Shown here piece by piece: positions 3,258-63,222 of a DNA stretch of 64,000 bases. A program made the position numbers and the translations under genes. The stretch spans positions 157,830-221,829 of the forward strand of contig JALHOO010000001.1 in assembly GCA_022842945.1 (NCBI GenBank). The letters are read 5' to 3'. The first letter of the stretch is position 1. Each line of letters starts with the position of its first letter. The DNA comes from Minisyncoccota bacterium. GTDB lineage: Bacteria; Patescibacteriota; Minisyncoccia; Phycocordibacterales; Phycocordibacteraceae. Under the pieces are notes generated by a model, which saw only the letters and a program-made list of their open reading frames with translations, was not told where the DNA came from and made no database searches.

Positions 3258-3616
3258 GGAGCGAGTAGGTAGATTCGGTCGCTAAAATCTCGCTTTCCAA
3301 ACTCTCCATGGACGAGAGAAAATCGTATATCTATATACGCTGGATTCTCTAATTCCTCATACAACACACTGAAGTCTTGTACGATATAGGGAGTGAGAGA
3401 CTGCATGTTTTCTGCGTCCGGAACCTTTCCGTGCATAACAGCCTGGCGCGCCTTCTTCAGAAGAAACACCCCTTCAAACTCTATGTGTGAGAGCTCGTTC
3501 ATACGTTCGCTCGATGCGCCTATAGCAAACGCACCCATGCCAGAGCCGGTTATAAGCAGGGAGAATAAACCAAGGTACACAAGTGTCTCAACAAGACTGA
3601 ATCCTCGGTGTGTCAT
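3254..3616 (-). CDS. Minor pilin-like protein
   Basis: MTHRGFSLVETLVYLGLFSLL is a canonical G-F-S-L-V-E prepilin motif. Confidence 0.7.
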   Translation of the reverse strand: MTHRGFSLVETLVYLGLFSLLITGSGMGAFAIGASSERMNELSHIEFEGVFLLKKARQAVMHGKVPDAENMQSLTPYIVQDFSVLYEELENPAYIDIRFSLVHGEFGKRDFSDRIYLLAP

Positions 3617-56591: not shown

Positions 56592-56796
56592 AATGAGAAA
56601 AGGCCGCTTGGGGAGCGACCTTGTTCGAGTGTGCGATATGCAACCTGCCCACGGCAGGATCTCTGCGACGGACCTTCCAAGGGGTTTGTTCCCTTGTGAA
56701 GCGGCGATTTGCATAAAGCTCTTTATGGGTAGGCACGAAGGTACTCTGTACAGTGAGGATAATCCTCAGGATAGGGTTGATGAAGCGGTGCCGGGG

Positions 56797-57387
56797 TCAG
56801 TTCCGCTTGGTCTGCGGCTGGCCCGTTGCCGGGGGAGCCGCGGCGGCTGCAGCTGCGGCCGGGGCGGCGGCGGGGCGGGCATCGATGCGCGCCTGGAGGC
56901 CTTCAACGAGGGTGTTGGACGTCTCCCAGCGTGCGTAGGACTGGGTCCATTTCCTCTGGAGTGCGACCTTCTCGTCGGAAAGTCTGTCGACTTCGCGTGC
57001 GAGTTCTGAACGCGTGACCTCCGCGGCCGCGAGCTCGGTTGCGACGGGATCCCTGAGGGCCGCCTTGCAGATGCTCCAGTAGGTGTCGCCCTTCTGGAAG
57101 GTGACGGTCGGAAGACCGCACACGTCCTTCCGGGTCTCGCCGACCTGGATGGCGCGGGCTTCCCGTTCCGTGTCGCCGTTGGCGATGCGGGCCTTGCGGG
57201 CAGCGTCGGCGATCATGGGGTCGGTGACGGCCACGATCGGGGCAGGCACGACAGGCGCAGGACGAGCAGCCGGGGCTGCAGTTTCCTGCACCGGGGCAGT
57301 CTGTTCGGCGATCGCTTGATCCTGGCCTTTGCAGGCGGGAACCAAAAGAGCGAGGCACAAGCCTGCCAACACGATAATCTTTTTCAT
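56797..57387 (-). CDS. LysM-domain lipoprotein with Ala/Pro-rich linkers
   Basis: Signal peptide ending LVPAC (lipobox-like), a LysM core VTFQKGDTYWSICKAAL, and a C-terminal AAAPAAAAAAAAPPATG tract encoded by a GC-rich GCN run. Confidence 0.6.
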   Translation of the reverse strand: MKKIIVLAGLCLALLVPACKGQDQAIAEQTAPVQETAAPAARPAPVVPAPIVAVTDPMIADAARKARIANGDTEREARAIQVGETRKDVCGLPTVTFQKGDTYWSICKAALRDPVATELAAAEVTRSELAREVDRLSDEKVALQRKWTQSYARWETSNTLVEGLQARIDARPAAAPAAAAAAAAPPATGQPQTKRN

Positions 57388-57534
57388 CTTCGTATCCTTC
57401 TTTCAATACTTGTTGCTGTTCAGGCAGAGACCGGGGCGCGAAGCCAAACGGTCTGTATCTACCTGGGAAACTCCATTTACAACATTAGCACAAAGTACTC
57501 TAATGTCAAGGAAGGTGTACTGCTACCCATACAG

Positions 57535-57562
57535 AAAAAACCGCCCAGGTGGGCGGTTTTCT
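57535..57562. terminator. Terminator after rpmA
   Basis: aaaaccgccc-aggt-gggcggtttt. Confidence 0.65.
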
Positions 57563-57574
57563 AGGAGAGAAGTA

Positions 57575-57853
57575 TTACGCGGGGACAACGTCTACAACCT
57601 TCTTGCGGACAACGCGTCCATCAAAGTTGGTCTTGCGGCGGTCGCGGAAGAGGATTTTGCCTGTCACCATCGAGTAGAGGGTGTGGTCATGGCCTACTTT
57701 CACGTTCTTTCCAGCCTCAATCTTAGTACCGCGCTGGCGCACGATAACCATGCCTGGGCGAGCTGCCTGGCCGTCATAGAGCTTAACCCCCAGGAATTTT
57801 GGTCCTGAGTCTCGTCCGTTTTTGGTAGATCCTCCTGCTTTTGTATGTGCCAT
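57575..57853 (-). CDS. rpmA: 50S ribosomal protein L27
   Basis: [24 protein letters not shown] conserved start with an AAGGAAAG Shine-Dalgarno. The ORF track reads through further upstream. Confidence 0.9.
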
Positions 57854-57878
57854 ACTGCTATACTTTCCTTTAGTACCT

Positions 57879-58289
57879 ATGAGTATACCAGACCAAGAAA
57901 GGAAGGACAAGGAAGGTCTGGGCCGTATTCCTACCGACCTCCTTATTGTCCTTGTGGTTATACTCTCTGCCACCCTAGCGTTCGGGCTCGGAGTGCTTGC
58001 GGGAAAGGATATGGCAAAGCCCAACGGCAAAGACGGGTTCTGGATAGAGCAGCTGCCTCAGAGACCTGAAGTGAGTGGGGGAGGGCCTGCGGCGGCTATA
58101 GAGGCCATTGAGGAGCCTGTAGTTGAAGGACCTAAGGTCTATATGGCCTCAAAAACTGGCACCAAATACTACTTGCCAACCTGCGGCACCGCCAAGCGCA
58201 TTAAGGAAGAGAATAAGGTGTGGTTTAGTACCAAAGACGAGGCTGAGGCGGCTGGGTACGGACCCGCTGCAAACTGCCCAGGACTGTAG
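57879..58289 (+). CDS. Membrane-anchored protein with C-terminal Ada-like zinc-binding ('sunset'-type) domain
   Basis: An N-terminal TM, then [39 protein letters not shown], which resembles the Ada_Zn_binding pattern C...I...N.V.F.S..EA..AGY.PC..C. Confidence 0.5.
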
Positions 58290-58303: not shown

Positions 58304-58909
58304 ATGATCGTCCTAGATGTTGAGACTACTGGCCTCATCCCACACAAGCATTCCATTCTTTCTCTTGGTGCACTCGACCTGAACGACCCCACGAATCAGT
58401 TCTATGAGGAGTGTCAGGTGTGGGAAGGAGCAGGTGTTGACGAAGATGCGCTGCGTATCAATGGCTTTTCCAAAGAGGAAGTAACAGGACAGGGGAGTAT
58501 GAAGCAGACCGAGGCGGAACTTATAACGGCCTTCGTCGCCTGGGCCACAGACCGCCCTCAAGACCGAACGCTTGCCGCACAGAACCCGTCGTTTGATTTG
58601 GAGTTTGTGCAGGCAGCGTGCGCACGTGCGGGAATAGACTGTCCGTTTGCAAAGCGCACCATAGACGTGCATACGGTTGCGTGGGTGCATATGGTTGAGC
58701 ATGGTGTGGAGCCTCCAACCAAGAACGGACACTCAGCCATTAATCTCGATACTGCACTTAAATACTGCGGTGTGCCCGAGGAACCCAAACCACACAATGC
58801 GCTCATGGGCGCTATGTGTCATGCCGAGGTTATCTCGCGCATAGCGTATACTAAGAAATTATTGCCCGACTTTAGCTCTTTCGATATTCCATGGGAGACG
58901 AACCGATAA
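58304..58909 (+). CDS. DEDD-family 3'-5' exonuclease (DnaQ-like)
   Basis: MIVLDVETTGL Exo I motif; the downstream Exo II/III acidic residues are plausible. Confidence 0.7.
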   Translation: MIVLDVETTGLIPHKHSILSLGALDLNDPTNQFYEECQVWEGAGVDEDALRINGFSKEEVTGQGSMKQTEAELITAFVAWATDRPQDRTLAAQNPSFDLEFVQAACARAGIDCPFAKRTIDVHTVAWVHMVEHGVEPPTKNGHSAINLDTALKYCGVPEEPKPHNALMGAMCHAEVISRIAYTKKLLPDFSSFDIPWETNR

Positions 58910-59682
58910 TCACCACGCCAACGATGAGCCTCTACGCCCCTGACGAAGGGGAGACAAAAGAGGTGCGTAATCGCGAGATGGGTAACGTGCTTACTCGTGC
59001 CATTGAGGAAGGGAAGCACGAGGTACCCACAAACCCAGCACCCCTCGTATGTAAGCCGCAACAGCTTGAGAGCTGGAGAGTGTTTAAGATCATGGCGGAG
59101 TTCGTAGACGGCTTTGATCTCCTAAAGAAGTACGGTCTTGCCGCTACCTTCTTTGGAAGTGTTCGTCTTACCCCTGAGGACCGGTACTACCAAGAGGCGG
59201 TAGAGCTCGCAGGTGTCCTCGCCAAGGAAGGCTACGCGGTTATAACGGGAGGCTCAGCAGGCATTATGGAGGCAGGAAATAAGGGAGCACATGATGCAGG
59301 AGGCTCTTCGGTTGGTCTTAATATCCGTCTTGAAGATAAGCAGGCCAACAACGCCTACCTTACCGACTACTTCACCTTCGATCACTTCTTTGTGCGCAAG
59401 GTTATGCTTACGTTCTCCTCAGAGGTATACGTGTACTTCCCAGGAGGCTTCGGTACGCTCGACGAGTTCACGGAAATTCTCACACTGGTGCAGACGAAGA
59501 AGATTAAGCCAGTGCCCATAGTGCTGTACGGCTCTGAGTTCTGGAATCCGTTCGTAGAGCTCTTCCGGAACCATCTTCTTGTAAAGTACGAGACTATTAG
59601 CGAAGAGGATCTCGCACTGTTCGTGGTTGTAGACTCGGTTGATGAAGCCGCGGCGTACATTAAGAAGACCGTAGTCTGCTAA
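58891..59682 (+). CDS. LOG family protein (TIGR00730 Rossmann fold, cytokinin riboside 5'-monophosphate phosphoribohydrolase-like)
   Basis: VFGSVRL, GGSAGIMEAGNKGA and PGGFGTLDEF motifs. Confidence 0.75.
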   Translation: MGDEPIITTPTMSLYAPDEGETKEVRNREMGNVLTRAIEEGKHEVPTNPAPLVCKPQQLESWRVFKIMAEFVDGFDLLKKYGLAATFFGSVRLTPEDRYYQEAVELAGVLAKEGYAVITGGSAGIMEAGNKGAHDAGGSSVGLNIRLEDKQANNAYLTDYFTFDHFFVRKVMLTFSSEVYVYFPGGFGTLDEFTEILTLVQTKKIKPVPIVLYGSEFWNPFVELFRNHLLVKYETISEEDLALFVVVDSVDEAAAYIKKTVVC

Positions 59683-59690
59683 TTAAGGAT

Positions 59691-59849
59691 ATGGGACTCG
59701 ACTACAGCCAGAAGCGTCTCATCTCTAAAGCGCTCCATAACAAGAAGCATGACGCGCGGAGCGAGCGCTTACGGAAGTACGCCTTCCTCACAGGCGTCAT
59801 GGGTATGCTCGTCTCTCTCGTGCACCTGATCGTGGTTGTGTTGAAGTGA
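59691..59849 (+). CDS. Micro-protein (52 aa), basic N-terminus plus C-terminal TM helix; paralogue of the next ORF
   Basis: MGLDYSQKRLISKALHNKKHDARSERLRKYAFLTGVMGMLVSLVHLIVVVLK. It is not on the ORF track because it is under 60 aa. Confidence 0.45.
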   Translation: MGLDYSQKRLISKALHNKKHDARSERLRKYAFLTGVMGMLVSLVHLIVVVLK

Positions 59850-59888
59850 GTCGTGATATTCTACTTCCATACGAGACCTATATAGCCT

Positions 59889-60023
59889 ATGCCACGACAC
59901 AAGACTAAGAAGCATGCGACACATAAGCCCAAGTTAGGTCTTGAGGTCTATGCATTCTGGACGGGGTTTGCGAGTACTCTTATAAGTCTTCTCCATGTGC
60001 TTATCGTCGCAACGAAAGGATAG
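59889..60023 (+). CDS. Micro-protein (44 aa), paralogue of 59691-59849
   Basis: MPRHKTKKHATHKPKLGLEVYAFWTGFASTLISLLHVLIVATKG shares the KKH...YAF.TG...L(V/I)SL.H(L/V)(I/L)V pattern. Its stop lies 2 nt before the next ATG. Confidence 0.45.
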   Translation: MPRHKTKKHATHKPKLGLEVYAFWTGFASTLISLLHVLIVATKG

Positions 60024-60025
60024 GC

Positions 60026-60229
60026 ATGAAGCGTTTCTATAGCCTCTCCAAAGCACAGCTCCTAACGCTCTTGATATTCGGTGCGGTTGCAACCTACTGG
60101 TCTATCTACAAGGCAAGCTACGCACACTACACCGCAACCATAACGCTTGCAGAAGTACTAAGCTGGCTTATCCCGCTTGTGCTCTTTATGTACACCCTTG
60201 GTTGGCGCGACCATCATAAGAAGAAATAG
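60026..60229 (+). CDS. Small 2-TM membrane protein (67 aa)
   Basis: Two hydrophobic helices; its stop lies 2 nt before the next ATG. Confidence 0.45.
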   Translation: MKRFYSLSKAQLLTLLIFGAVATYWSIYKASYAHYTATITLAEVLSWLIPLVLFMYTLGWRDHHKKK

Positions 60230-60231
60230 AG

Positions 60232-60366
60232 ATGAATACTCCTAAGAAGAAAGTAGTAAAGCCTGAGCCTGGCTATCGGGGAGGGAAGGGAGGTATGAAT
60301 GGCTTTTCGGATAAGGGTGTGAAGAAGCCCGTGCGTGCGACCTACTACGGAAAGAAGGCGCGGTAG
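60232..60366 (+). CDS. Micro-protein (44 aa), Lys/Gly-rich, KGG-like
   Basis: MNTPKKKVVKPEPGYRGGKGGMNGFSDKGVKKPVRATYYGKKAR, translationally coupled to the upstream ORF. Confidence 0.4.
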   Translation: MNTPKKKVVKPEPGYRGGKGGMNGFSDKGVKKPVRATYYGKKAR

Positions 60367-60421: not shown

Positions 60422-60516
60422 CGGCGAGATGGCAGAGTGGCTTAATGTTACGGCCCTCGATGGCCGTAGGGGAAGCTCAGACTTCTCTCGCAGGTTCGAA
60501 TCCTGCTCTTGCCGCC
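60422..60516 (+). tRNA. tRNA-Ser (class II, long variable arm; anticodon probably CGA)
   Basis: Acceptor GGCGAGA/TCTTGCC, G73 discriminator, encoded CCA, T-loop GGTTCGAATCC. My hand fold gives an atypical 8-nt anticodon loop. Confidence 0.7.
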
Positions 60517-60542
60517 AACCGTTCTTTAGGCATGATTGATAG

Positions 60543-60617
60543 GGGTGGGTAGCTCAGCGGTAGAGCGCTGGCACTCTGTGTCAGAGGTCGCGGGTTCGAA
60601 TCTCGCCTCTCCCTCCA
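60543..60617 (+). tRNA. tRNA-Arg (anticodon TCT by hand fold)
   Basis: 75 nt with encoded CCA and T-loop GGTTCGAATCT. The anticodon stem CTGGC/GTCAG has a loop ACTCTGT, with C at position 33 (unusual). Confidence 0.6.
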
Positions 60618-60712
60618 ATTATCCTTCACCGTACTGTCCCGGGGAAGCTCCACGCTTGGACTCTCGCCACGTTGGCTTGAGGATTGCAAGGTCGTACCTT
60701 GCCCCCGGTGCC

Positions 60713-60740
60713 CACCGTCTCGTTGAGGCGGTTTTTGTTT
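60713..60740. terminator. Terminator after the tRNA pair
   Basis: ccgtctc-gtt-gaggcgg followed by tttttgttt. Confidence 0.55.
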
Positions 60741-60804
60741 AACTAGAGAAATAAAGTAGAAAAAGGCCGGGGAGTGTTTCCACTCATGATACCGTGCTAC
60801 CTTT

Positions 60805-61230
60805 ATGTTCATGAAGAAACTCAAGCCCTTGATCAAAGCAATTGGAGAGAATTGGTTCAGAATAACTATTCTATTATTGGTTTTGTTGGTCATAGTGATG
60901 GTAAACGGGTACTTGCAAGAACAGAATAGGCTGGCGCGCGAGGCTGCCACTCTTAAGCAAGAAAAAGAAGACAAGGAGTTCGATGCTCAACAGAAAGAGG
61001 CTTGTCTGGCAATCTATAAGCAAGAATCATCGAAGTGGAATAACGTGAATGGGTGGAGATACGCTGATGATCAAGATACTTGTTACGTGGAGTACAGGCT
61101 CAATCCAAGCGAGAAGAAGACTGGGGCAGAGTGTGACGCACTCTACAAGGGAGACGACGGAATTGTGCTATTCGGTTTGATAGATAGCTGGCTTAATTGC
61201 AAGGATGGAGTATTTGAAAACTCATTCTAG
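60805..61230 (+). CDS. Small secreted/membrane-anchored Cys-containing protein (island gene)
   Basis: 141 aa with an N-terminal TM and 4 Cys; markedly lower GC than the upstream genes. Confidence 0.5.
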   Translation: MFMKKLKPLIKAIGENWFRITILLLVLLVIVMVNGYLQEQNRLAREAATLKQEKEDKEFDAQQKEACLAIYKQESSKWNNVNGWRYADDQDTCYVEYRLNPSEKKTGAECDALYKGDDGIVLFGLIDSWLNCKDGVFENSF

Positions 61231-61242
61231 CTAAGAAAACAA

Positions 61243-61277
61243 GAAAGAGACCTCATGAGAGGTCTCTTTCTTTTTAT
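61243..61277. terminator. Intrinsic terminator
   Basis: aagaaagagacctc-atga-gaggtctctttcttttt. Confidence 0.7.
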
Positions 61278-61486
61278 CCTAAACTTAACCATTTCCCCAG
61301 GAGCCAAAAGTGATTTGGGGATAGAGGTCACTTCAGCGGTAACTGGCGCCAGTTAGCTTTACTAAAGAAACTATCTATACCAACAGTCACTCGAGGCGAT
61401 CTCTTAATGGGGAATAAGGTTTCGGAAGGCAACCTAAGACGTACGGGTAGGAATCGAACCAGAAGTACTTTCGTGGCTTTGTAAGA

Positions 61487-61520
61487 CATACTTGGTACAA
61501 TATACGCAGTACATCTAGAG
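61487..61520 (+). repeat. Direct repeat copy A (GTACAATATA...GCAGTACATCTAG)
   Basis: catacTTgGTACAATATAcgcaGTACAtCTAGag, similar to copy B at 62826-62866. Confidence 0.5.
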
Positions 61521-61669
61521 ACACAGAAAGTGGGCCAGGATTAGGAGCAAACGAGAATAGTTCCCTTGGATCTCGATTCACTGAGGAAAGGTATGTGGTG
61601 TAGTCACAAACCCTAGATTCACAGGTGGGTCTGTGGAGGACAAAAAGGGGAGTGTGGTAGGGTAGGTAG

Positions 61670-62386
61670 ATGGCAAAGGTAAGTAATTTTATATTTGTTG
61701 ATGAGGCGGGTGATCCTGGGGCACCGTATTCGATCGGGAATGACGGTGTAAAAATCTCTACGGGTGCGAGCCCTTTTTATATTATTGCCGCATTGTGCGT
61801 AGACGAACGCCAACTTCATTTGATGGAGGACAGGATAATGGCTGTGAAAAGCGCTTTCGGGTATACAAAGGAAATTAAGAGTAACGAAATTTCGCTGCCC
61901 CTCTACAGAGCTCTTCTAGAGATAGTTAATGAACTTGGTGTAAAGATTTATTACTGTCTAGTTGATAAGGCTAATTATCAAGGACAATTTAAAGTCGACG
62001 GAATTCGTGAGCTACACAACGTATTTGACGAGTACCATCTTGTTAAGGCAGTTACTTGCGCTGTTGTCGATGGAGACTTAAGAGATGTAGAAGTTGTAAT
62101 AGATAGAACCGATAGACGCCTTCTCGATGGAAAATTTGAAGCTTTTGATAATTATTTAATTCGGAAGGTCAAAAAGTATTTTGGCGATAAAGATTTTGGG
62201 AGAATAAACCACATCACTCATGTGAATTCTCAGTATGTTAATGCAATGCAAATGTCAGATATTGTGGGGGGAGCAATACGAGATAATTTCACAGGAAAGA
62301 ATACGGATCTCATCGCGGTTCTCTCAGAGGAGCTTCTTATAAAAGCTACCGGTAAAAGGTATAAACCTCTTACAATTGAGATATAA
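61670..62386 (+). CDS. DUF3800-like protein
   Basis: N-terminal FIFVDEAGDPG matches the DUF3800 DESG-type start; the AT-rich codon usage differs from the core genes. Confidence 0.55.
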   Translation: MAKVSNFIFVDEAGDPGAPYSIGNDGVKISTGASPFYIIAALCVDERQLHLMEDRIMAVKSAFGYTKEIKSNEISLPLYRALLEIVNELGVKIYYCLVDKANYQGQFKVDGIRELHNVFDEYHLVKAVTCAVVDGDLRDVEVVIDRTDRRLLDGKFEAFDNYLIRKVKKYFGDKDFGRINHITHVNSQYVNAMQMSDIVGGAIRDNFTGKNTDLIAVLSEELLIKATGKRYKPLTIEI

Positions 62387-62613
62387 AAAGAAAAGGGGGC
62401 GCCCACACCTGGGACACCCTTTTCATTGGTTAGTATACACAAGTAAAGTGTAGGGTCAATGAATATAACGATTTCGTGGCCTAAAATAAGGCTAGAATTG
62501 TCCACATAGCATATTCTGTGTGCATAGTATGCAGGCACGCGTGCGAGAGTCGGCTGGCTGCTCATACTTAGGAAGGGAAGGCTAGATTCGTAGGTAAATC
62601 TATAGTCCCTAAA

Positions 62614-62654
62614 ACCACTTCCCCGAACCCAATTTTTGGGTTTTTGGGGAAGTG
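62614..62654. repeat. Long near-perfect inverted repeat (18-bp arms, 5-nt loop) in an 850-bp non-coding stretch
   Basis: ccacttccccgaacccaa-ttttt-gggtttttggggaagtgg. Confidence 0.6.
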
Positions 62655-62825
62655 GTCACTAATGGCAAATAAGCGCACGGATAAAATTTAGTAGCCACTG
62701 GAAGTTGGAAGAATTATTTTGCCGTCCTTCGTAAAGGGAAGTAGGGGTACAAAAGTGTGCACTAGGTGACATAGATCTGATTCAAAGAATTTAGCCCAGA
62801 AGAGGGGCTCAGGGCTTTCTTATAT

Positions 62826-62866
62826 ATACTTCGTACAATATATCTTTTGCGTAGTACAATCTAGCA
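62826..62866 (+). repeat. Direct repeat copy B
   Basis: atacTTcGTACAATATAtcttttGCGTAGTACAatCTAGc, with 17 of 18 identities in the core plus a shared GTACA..TCTAG tail. Confidence 0.5.
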
Positions 62867-63189
62867 AATAGCTGGGCCGTATTCTATTCAGCCCGCATTT
62901 CTTTCTATACATCTTCTCTCTGTGCGAGCCTCTATACTGCCCTGTGAGCTCTCTGAATATTCGGAGTGATACATCCTATGACTCTGCATTCACCTCTGCG
63001 CGCGCCTACAAAAGATTCTCCACACCACTCCCCCGATTTCTTTAAACCGAGACAGGGGAGTCGTTGTTCAGAGCAGGATACTTTTAGTAGGTGCACTTCC
63101 CTCTCTAGGAAAATAATTTACTTAGGGAAGTGTCCAATGGTTTGGAAGCTTTCAGTTGAGAGACTCTGTATCGTAGTAAAAGGTATGAA

Positions 63190-63222
63190 GAAAGCGCGGA
63201 CGATATGTATCGTCCGCGCTTT
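63190..63222. terminator. Terminator for the minus-strand zinc-ribbon gene
   Basis: aaagcgcggacgata-tgt-atcgtccgcgcttt. Confidence 0.6.

Follow-up and report, generated by a model that had tools for sequence, protein, structure and literature searches.

The DNA analysed here is a 64,000-nt stretch (the window) of a Minisyncoccota bacterium, contig JALHOO010000001.1, and the subject is a LOG gene together with four small open reading frames (ORF1 to ORF4) that follow it. In the ORF listing of the window, all four ORFs lie on the + strand and open with ATG. The features of the cluster are as follows (aa, amino acids; TM, transmembrane).

58891-59682, + strand: LOG gene, encoding a type-II (hexameric-type) LOG/TIGR00730 phosphoribohydrolase of 263 aa, with PF03641 and TIGR00730 matches.
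59691-59849, + strand: ORF1, 52 aa, tail-anchored, with the N-terminal sequence MGLDYSQKRL (hereafter the N-motif), a basic linker and a C-terminal TM helix at about residues 30-51.
59852-59862, + strand: candidate internal promoter CGTGATATTCT, extended -10-like, consensus cgTGnTATyCT.
59889-60023, + strand: ORF2, 44 aa, a paralogue of ORF1 without the N-motif, with a basic N-terminus followed by the TM helix LEVYAFWTGFASTLISLLHVLIVATKG.
60026-60229, + strand: ORF3, 67 aa, a two-TM hairpin membrane protein by hydropathy, with both ends basic.
60232-60366, + strand: ORF4, 44 aa, soluble, very basic and Lys/Gly-rich, with the C-terminal block KGVKKPVRATYYGKKAR.

The initial annotation of this region, made from the sequence, had placed four micro-ORFs between the LOG gene and a tRNA pair, with stop and start codons 2 nt apart at two junctions. 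The ORFs were found where it had put them, and the spacing is exactly as described: the ORF2/ORF3 junction reads TAG-gc-ATG (60021-60028) and the ORF3/ORF4 junction TAG-ag-ATG (60227-60234). The LOG stop and the ORF1 ATG are separated by 8 nt. Absent from that annotation was the point that is central here, namely that ORF1 and ORF2 belong to a peptide family which, over a wide clade, is almost always encoded directly after LOG. This tight genomic link of a small-protein family to LOG is previously undescribed.

The LOG protein was used as an unbiased anchor to take 80 loci from GTDB species representatives, the best 40 of which come from Patescibacteria metagenome-assembled genomes labelled Paceibacterota, Parcubacteria, Kaiserbacteria, Minisyncoccia and similar, so that the window falls within these Patescibacteria. 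The frames downstream of LOG were tracked by tblastn and ORF maps, and differences were counted on codon alignments. ORF1 was open and syntenic in 15 other GTDB species, ORF2 in 16, ORF4 in 10 and ORF3 in four only, these being the closest relatives (loci L001, L003, L005 and L033). The mean pairwise differences at codon positions 1, 2 and 3 were 0.34, 0.24 and 0.58 for ORF1 (median ratio of nonsynonymous to synonymous change, dN/dS, of 0.21), 0.28, 0.18 and 0.60 for ORF2 (0.14), 0.24, 0.13 and 0.53 for ORF3 (0.12), and 0.27, 0.27 and 0.55 for ORF4 (0.20). Over the four ORFs the median proportion of synonymous differences (pS) was 0.68-0.77, so that synonymous sites are near saturation. As the frames have stayed open in 4-16 species despite this near-saturation, with dN/dS of 0.12-0.21, an origin by chance is excluded. 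Frame conservation and a codon-position bias, on which the initial annotation had staked its proposal, were found for every one of the four, and these comparisons make it nearly certain that they are protein-coding genes under purifying selection.

The linkage to LOG was followed in 80 metagenome loci collected by the peptide pattern alone, 70 of which extend 300 nt or more upstream of the peptide. In 68 of these 70 the peptide is directly preceded by the 3' end of a LOG gene, with an identity to the window LOG of 53-92% across the loci. For the 59 unique peptides with the N-motif, the gap from the LOG stop to the ATG had a median of 5 nt (interquartile range 3-9 nt) and was 12 nt or less in 53; in L084-L086 and L132 the two genes overlap by 4 nt. 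In lineages where the family is split into two genes, the copy adjoining LOG is always that with the N-motif. Three long-form members (single genes, described below) were located by exact sequence, and each lies directly after LOG, one of them with a 4-nt overlap. Upstream of LOG, these three long-form loci all carry CorA, S41 peptidase, L9 and L27, where the window has an RNase-T-like exonuclease gene instead, and downstream of the peptide they differ from one another (M23 peptidase, F420-ligase-like, HhH-GPD). The ORF1/ORF2 family is genetically coupled to type-II LOG by near-obligate adjacency.

Small TM ORFs after LOG were also sought in loci of Bacteroidota, Thermodesulfobacteriota and Planctomycetota, and none was found. 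Two Patescibacteria loci without the family, L026 and L027, have a different 45-aa ORF that overlaps the LOG stop (-7 to +131 relative to it); its N-terminus is basic and the second half of the peptide hydrophobic (MLTKKPLEGLFCFATLKT...). This ORF may encode an analogous but unrelated small membrane partner.

By sequence, the upstream gene is an ordinary type-II LOG. It matches PF03641 at E=4.7e-30 (104.9 bits vs a cut-off of 27) and TIGR00730 with 131 bits (cut-off 96.35), and its translation contains the catalytic motif PGGFGTLDE (PGGxGTxxE). The closest PDB chain is 5wq3 (Cg1261/CgLOGII of Corynebacterium glutamicum; E=2.3e-50, query residues 24-257 against 10-242 of the chain), and the alignment with 1wek (Tt1465 of Thermus thermophilus) extends over residues 50-258. 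Type-II LOGs form a hexameric class that is set by an extra N-terminal (alpha-1) helix (PMC5379747), and the alignment with 5wq3, starting at LOG residue 24, includes the N-terminal helix region that builds the hexamer. In sequence match, PGGxGTxxE motif and a TIGR00730 score above the cut-off, the protein is like CgLOGII and Tt1465, and a hexamer with phosphoribohydrolase activity is predicted. It is acidic (pI 4.8, net charge -13 per monomer), as opposed to the four micro-proteins, which are basic (pI 9.9-10.6).

In this Patescibacteria clade the last residue of LOG is a conserved Cys, as part of the ending ...NV(S/T)C (59680 in the window; loci L001-L033 and L084-L168), and a CKP motif near LOG residue 54 (C54) is kept as well. 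LOGs of other phyla in the sample are without this terminal Cys. It was considered as a peptide-specific feature of LOG and rejected, since sister LOGs without the peptide have it too.

ORF1 and ORF2 are, as the initial annotation had proposed, paralogues: they match each other by BLASTP at E=3e-8 (15/38 identical) and belong to the same profile family, the hidden Markov model (HMM) of which matches ORF1 at 2.3e-25 and ORF2 at 2.8e-16. Six residues (A, F, T, G, S and L) are invariant in the joint alignment. The family HMM finds one locus within the window. A profile built from the orthologues of both ORFs retrieved at least 308 clusters (90% identity, E<=0.01) among 5.8 billion proteins; those that are named are all 'hypothetical protein' entries of Patescibacteria, and a Pfam domain is present in none of them. 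When 1.84 billion representatives were scanned exhaustively with HMMER, 39 clusters (50% identity) were obtained, whose members are 35-84 aa long bar one. This sole long member, P0177 (131 aa), was considered as a Rosetta-stone fusion of the peptide to a larger domain and was discarded as an apparent chimera with a histidine-kinase fragment. No significant match to Pfam, NCBIfam or PADLOC was obtained for any of the four peptides, and a PDB search with the ORF1/ORF2 family profile listed only Spi-B, at a non-significant E=0.78. ORF1 and ORF2 thus represent an undescribed small-protein family of Patescibacteria, of a known general kind.

The exact sequences of ORF1, ORF3 and ORF4 are present, unnamed, in the public protein collection, that of ORF1 from both NCBI and Logan sources. 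The exact ORF2 sequence is absent from a collection of 15 billion proteins, and ORF2 is uncalled in the identical Logan contigs. ORF2 is an annotation gap despite having the second-strongest constraint of the four (0.14, after 0.12 for ORF3).

The tail-anchored architecture attributed to both peptides in the initial annotation agrees with hydropathy and with an AlphaFold2 (AF2) model, that is, a single C-terminal hydrophobic segment behind a hydrophilic, basic N-terminus. The only hydrophobic window is at residues 30-52 in ORF1 and at 23-43 in ORF2, and both peptides have a net charge of about +6 to +7. When run on the family alignment, AF2 gave for ORF1 a helix at 5-18 (pLDDT confidence score ~63) and another at 22-51 (pLDDT >90). 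The first 29 residues of ORF1 carry a net charge of +5.7 vs one or two basic residues at the C-terminus, so that the positive-inside rule favours an N-in orientation. Both peptides are very probably anchored in the membrane through the C-terminal TM helix.

The helix carries the motif L..YAFWTG..ST.ISL, in its extended form L..YAFWTG..ST.ISL..V...A.K. Residue frequencies were taken from 267 unique family sequences, with the Y numbered 0: L 97% (-3), Y 97% (0), A 100% (+1), F 91% (+2), T 97% (+4), G 100% (+5), S 89% (+8), T 75% (+9), S 98% (+12), L 89% (+13), Q or H 81% (+15), A 77% (+20) and K or R 87% (+22). The small or polar residues at 1, 5, 8, 12, 15 and 20 share one face of the helix (A-xxx-G-xx-S-xxx-S-xx-Q/H), and a stripe of this type usually marks a helix that makes specific TM helix-helix contacts rather than serving as a passive anchor.

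Members of the Kaiserbacteria type are single genes of 62-70 aa, composed of MGLDYSQKRLL, a basic linker and the helix LEVYAFWTGF.ST.ISL.QV. The linker of this long form holds a nearly invariant internal Met (...LSSM(R/K)(R/K)K...), and short forms of 37 aa start at the equivalent Met. ORF1 is made up of the N-motif and a diverged helix, and ORF2 of a basic segment and a helix of the ancestral type. As the long single-gene members combine an ORF1-type N-motif with an ORF2-type helix, ORF1 and ORF2 are read as the two modules of such a protein; they would be two halves, or duplicates, of one ancestral protein.

ORF3 and ORF4 are narrower, lineage-specific additions, whose profiles retrieved 14 and 17 clusters, respectively, among the same 5.8 billion proteins. 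ORF4 has a net charge of about +10 to +10.5 and is soluble and probably disordered; in L012 it stands alone directly after LOG. The initial annotation had called it KGG-like, a label that has to be abandoned: no match was found in Pfam (E<=1), NCBIfam or the PDB (even at E<=10), known ribosomal and nucleic-acid-binding families included, and ORF4 forms a narrow family of its own. It shares a Lys/Gly-rich composition with the KGG repeat proteins (PF10685), but its conserved part is a non-repetitive C-terminal block, GV.K.VRA.Y.GKKAR, which is almost fully conserved across orthologues. A further accessory that binds LOG or the membrane surface is the favoured role for ORF4; alternatively, it may bind nucleic acid.

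Upstream of ORF1, neither a Shine-Dalgarno (SD)-like nor a -10-like element was found in the relatives, and this fits a translation of ORF1 that is coupled to LOG termination. Just after the ORF1 stop, the pattern TGnTA[TC]nnT (mostly cgTGnTATyCT) is present in 15 of the 16 species with ORF1; in L029, which is without ORF1, it stands just after the LOG stop, giving 16 of 17 loci in total. In 11 loci this -10-like motif ends 6-9 nt before the ORF2 ATG. Two points weigh against its being a promoter: it ends 26 nt before the ORF2 ATG in the window, and it is not enriched there, as CGTGATATTCT occurs once, close to the chance level, and TGnTATyCT four times against 2.9 expected. The weight of the motif therefore comes from its conservation across species only. 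This conservation suggests that ORF2-ORF4 have an internal promoter of their own besides read-through. A transcript starting from it would carry no leader before ORF2 in most relatives, and a short one in the window. The earlier description of the ORFs as one operon of four holds as regards their tight packing behind LOG, but it is too simple if, as is probable, ORF2-ORF4 are also transcribed separately.

ORF3 is preceded by an SD-like AAGGA or AGGGA in five of five loci (AAGGA in the window), formed by the terminal Lys-Gly-stop codons of ORF2. Over the whole window, SD-like motifs were found for 14 of 38 ORFs. Of 37 long ORFs, 11 have a -10-like hexamer whose end is 4-10 nt ahead of the ATG, vs 2% of random positions, and most of the long ORFs with such a hexamer lack an SD-like motif. 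The hexamers include TAGAAT, TATACT and TATAGT, with examples at the ATGs 50907(-), 52381(-), 53420(+), 28514(+), 10432(+) and 58304(+). Leaderless genes are marked by a TANNNT signal that precedes the start codon by about 10-12 nt (PMC3160421). Leaderless mRNAs appear to be in wide use in the genome of the window.

When two genes stay adjacent and translationally coupled, a physical interaction of their products is classically predicted. In the reading that we prefer, with a probability of about 0.5, the acidic LOG hexamer has the peptides as its partners at the membrane, and the opposite charges of LOG and the peptides support this. Judging from hydropathy and charge, the peptides would be inserted in the cytoplasmic membrane in the N-in orientation, and their TM helices would make contact, through the small/polar stripe, with one another, with ORF3 or with a different membrane protein. 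The basic cytoplasmic parts, the N-motif above all, would bind the LOG hexamer, and through this binding the enzyme and its nucleotide cleavage would be held or regulated at the membrane, with ORF3 and ORF4 as recent, lineage-specific accessory components of the cluster. As to expression, LOG and ORF1 would be translationally coupled, and ORF2-ORF3-ORF4 would be produced from read-through plus the putative internal extended -10 promoter, with SD-like sequences serving the internal cistrons; in the strain of the window, the unit would run through two tRNAs to a terminator at 60714-60732.

The strongest competitor of this reading, possible but distinctly less probable, treats the peptides as small membrane proteins independent of LOG that have only a transcript in common with it, the adjacency reflecting co-expression or inherited gene order. 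They could act, for instance, as a membrane-stress factor, or as regulators or subunits of a transporter or of a machine for secretion or pili, and their partner would be an integral membrane protein touched through the TM helix. Several observations weigh on this side and against LOG as the partner. The TM helix is more conserved than the cytoplasmic part, and its invariant polar and small residues are typical of intramembrane helix packing, which would fit a partner within the membrane rather than LOG. The N-motif is missing from the 37-aa forms and from ORF2. Among the 40 closest LOG loci, the peptide lies within 5 kb in only 16, so that LOG works without it in many sister lineages, and in two loci (L135 and L168) the peptide is found without an upstream LOG. 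Furthermore, on the LOG tree the pair, long, short and absent states are interspersed, and many of the peptide loci are related, for which reason 68 of 70 does not amount to 68 independent events. Against independence stands the persistence of the few-nucleotide adjacency in those 68 loci over the whole range of LOG identity, with other neighbours differing between clades; no other gene is a consistent neighbour, and in the long-form loci no membrane-protein gene recurs beside the module.

A more far-reaching version of the membrane-partner reading, which we regard as doubtful, is a new membrane-bound complex of Patescibacteria for nucleotide processing or sensing, made up of the LOG hexamer, the tail-anchored peptides and, in the lineage of the window, ORF3 and ORF4. 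Such a complex could take two forms, either a salvage 'metabolon' at the membrane that would cleave imported nucleotides in these auxotrophic episymbionts, or a SLOG sensor that would gate a pore of TM helices.

The second form leads to a separate explanation, in which LOG is a SLOG-type nucleotide sensor and the peptides are its membrane effector. The binding of a ligand, or its cleavage by LOG, would control the oligomerisation of the TM helices into a pore or channel, and the module would serve signalling or conflict, not metabolism. Elsewhere, SLOG domains are found joined to membrane channels, the small-residue stripe of the TM helix would suit oligomerisation, and the LOG of the window also matches the SLOG cluster-4 model PF18306 (E=7.8e-18) and, weakly, PsyrA in PADLOC (E=2.4e-5). 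On the other hand, it keeps the full catalytic PGGxGTxxE and scores above the TIGR00730 cut-off like ordinary enzymes, PADLOC matches none of the peptides, and, in contrast to mobile defence islands, the module occurs as one copy with vertical inheritance and conserved synteny. This explanation is improbable.

Even less probable is a membrane-damaging function, of the type I toxin or leaderless bacteriocin kind, although the initial annotation had mentioned toxic peptides and although small, cationic, hydrophobic tandem paralogues, the second of which may be leaderless in relatives, would suit it. Type I toxins (Hok, TisB, Fst, Ldr and Ibs) are likewise small, hydrophobic and cationic peptides with one TM segment, but they are stand-alone, patchy, often multicopy and paired with antisense RNAs. 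The peptides described here are coupled to a housekeeping-type enzyme, with ORF1 starting 8 nt after its stop, and are syntenic over a class-level clade (68 of 70 loci), under purifying selection and present at a single locus in the 64-kb window; a consensus scan over the ORFs gave no antisense promoter-like site, which is weak negative evidence, and neither Pfam nor PADLOC gave a match. Leaderless two-peptide bacteriocins such as enterocin L50A/L50B are also tandem paralogous cationic peptides of ~44 aa with no leader peptide. They are, however, amphipathic, secreted, strain-specific and accompanied by transporter and immunity genes, whereas ORF1 and ORF2 have a uniformly hydrophobic anchor of 22 residues, no transporter or immunity genes nearby and a broad vertical conservation. 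Finally, the idea that the tRNA genes have a non-coding leader in which some or all of the four frames are open by chance, to which the size of three of them (<60 aa), the lack of ORF2 in public gene predictions and the absence of SD-like motifs upstream of ORF1, ORF2 and most ORF4 orthologues might lend colour, has practically nothing left in its favour given the substitution pattern reported above, the general scarcity of SD motifs in this genome and the persistence of the ORFs in relatives, most of which are without the tRNAs.

Among known systems, the membrane-partner reading brings to mind ElaB/YqjD/YgaM (DUF883), which have a charged, helical cytoplasmic N-terminal part and one TM segment at the extreme C-terminus and tether a soluble partner, as is presumed for the peptides. 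No sequence relationship exists according to Pfam, the size is different (~100 aa vs 37-70 aa), and the partner of these proteins is the ribosome, whereas that presumed for the peptides is LOG, and the TM helix is the most conserved part of the latter. KdpF, AcrZ, CydX and MgtS are also below 70 aa, with one TM segment, encoded in or beside the operon of their partner, often unannotated and acting by helix-helix contacts. They are not homologous to the peptides, and their partners are integral membrane complexes, as opposed to the soluble enzyme that is the constant neighbour here.

We know of no LOG with a dedicated membrane-protein partner, and a literature search on membrane partners of LOG, and on small proteins of the candidate phyla radiation (CPR) in connection with LOG, returned nothing relevant. 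Patescibacteria (CPR) have tiny genomes and no de novo nucleotide synthesis, and most have yet to be cultivated. A large share of their lineage-specific genes has no annotation, and a family of at least 308 clusters that is in no curated library is now defined. If the link to LOG is physical, the peptides would be the first known protein partner for LOG, and LOG activity would be organised at the membrane, with a bearing on the salvage of host-derived nucleotides. The locus also illustrates how leaderless, SD-less micro-genes of CPR bacteria escape annotation, as with the uncalled ORF2.

Downstream of ORF4, three further features were located.

60423-60517, + strand: class-II tRNA of Ser type (long variable arm) with an anomalous anticodon stem-loop (ARAGORN; Rfam tRNA, 41.9 bits).
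60543-60617, + strand: tRNA-Arg(UCU) (ARAGORN and Rfam).
60636-60742, + strand: structured non-coding stretch with a terminator-like hairpin and a T-run (fold, terminator scan and comparison with L089).

The terminator scan gave no terminator-like site between ORF4 and the tRNAs; the first on the + strand is at 60714-60732, which is likely to be the 3' end of the transcription unit. The tRNA pair was found only in the near-identical contigs L081-L083 and in L089, and ten relatives scanned with Rfam had no RNA family downstream of ORF4, so that the link to the tRNAs is strain-specific. The statement in the initial annotation that the ORFs feed into tRNA-Ser/Arg is thus valid for the strain of the window, L081-L083 and L089, but not for the ten other relatives.

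The Ser-type tRNA can form either an anticodon stem of 7 bp with a 6-nt loop, CUCGAU, or one of 5 bp with an 8-nt loop, CCUCGAUG. As no 7-nt loop is possible, the ARAGORN output was 'tRNA-?(Arg|Ser)(cg)'. The tRNA of L089 (1134-1228) has an identical loop, with four substitutions elsewhere in the tRNA and a surrounding region that is 96% identical; since the loop is kept despite these substitutions, it is not an assembly error. Locus L100 has two tRNAs with odd loops at 3264-3439, with anticodons given as 'ca' and 'gtag'.

After tRNA-Arg, ~77 nt (60636-60712) adopt a closed, multi-branch, cloverleaf-like fold (z=-2.6). They hardly differ between the window and L089, unlike the flanks, and have no Rfam match even at E<=10. 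Relatives without the tRNAs have in common, immediately 3' of ORF4, a conserved ~95-nt element (L001 6462-6570, L003 6489-6598, L004 6294-6402, L006 6268-6378 and L096 1498-1605), with three hairpins, a few compensatory changes in the first, and a terminator-like last hairpin with a T-run. This element, which is not in Rfam, may be a small RNA or a 3' untranslated region (3'-UTR) element.

On the other side of the cluster, the RNase-T-like exonuclease gene that precedes LOG (58304-58909) runs 19 nt into it (58891-58909), and the genes at 57329-58289 are tightly packed on the same strand. With this overlap and packing, LOG may not be the first gene of its unit but lie inside a longer one. The G+C content climbs to 0.64-0.67 at 56600-57350, and right downstream of the tRNA pair it falls from about 0.50-0.55 to 0.38-0.46 (60800-63200). 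A DUF3800 gene (61670-62386) sits inside this low-GC block, which, lying beside the strain-specific tRNAs, may be an insertion.

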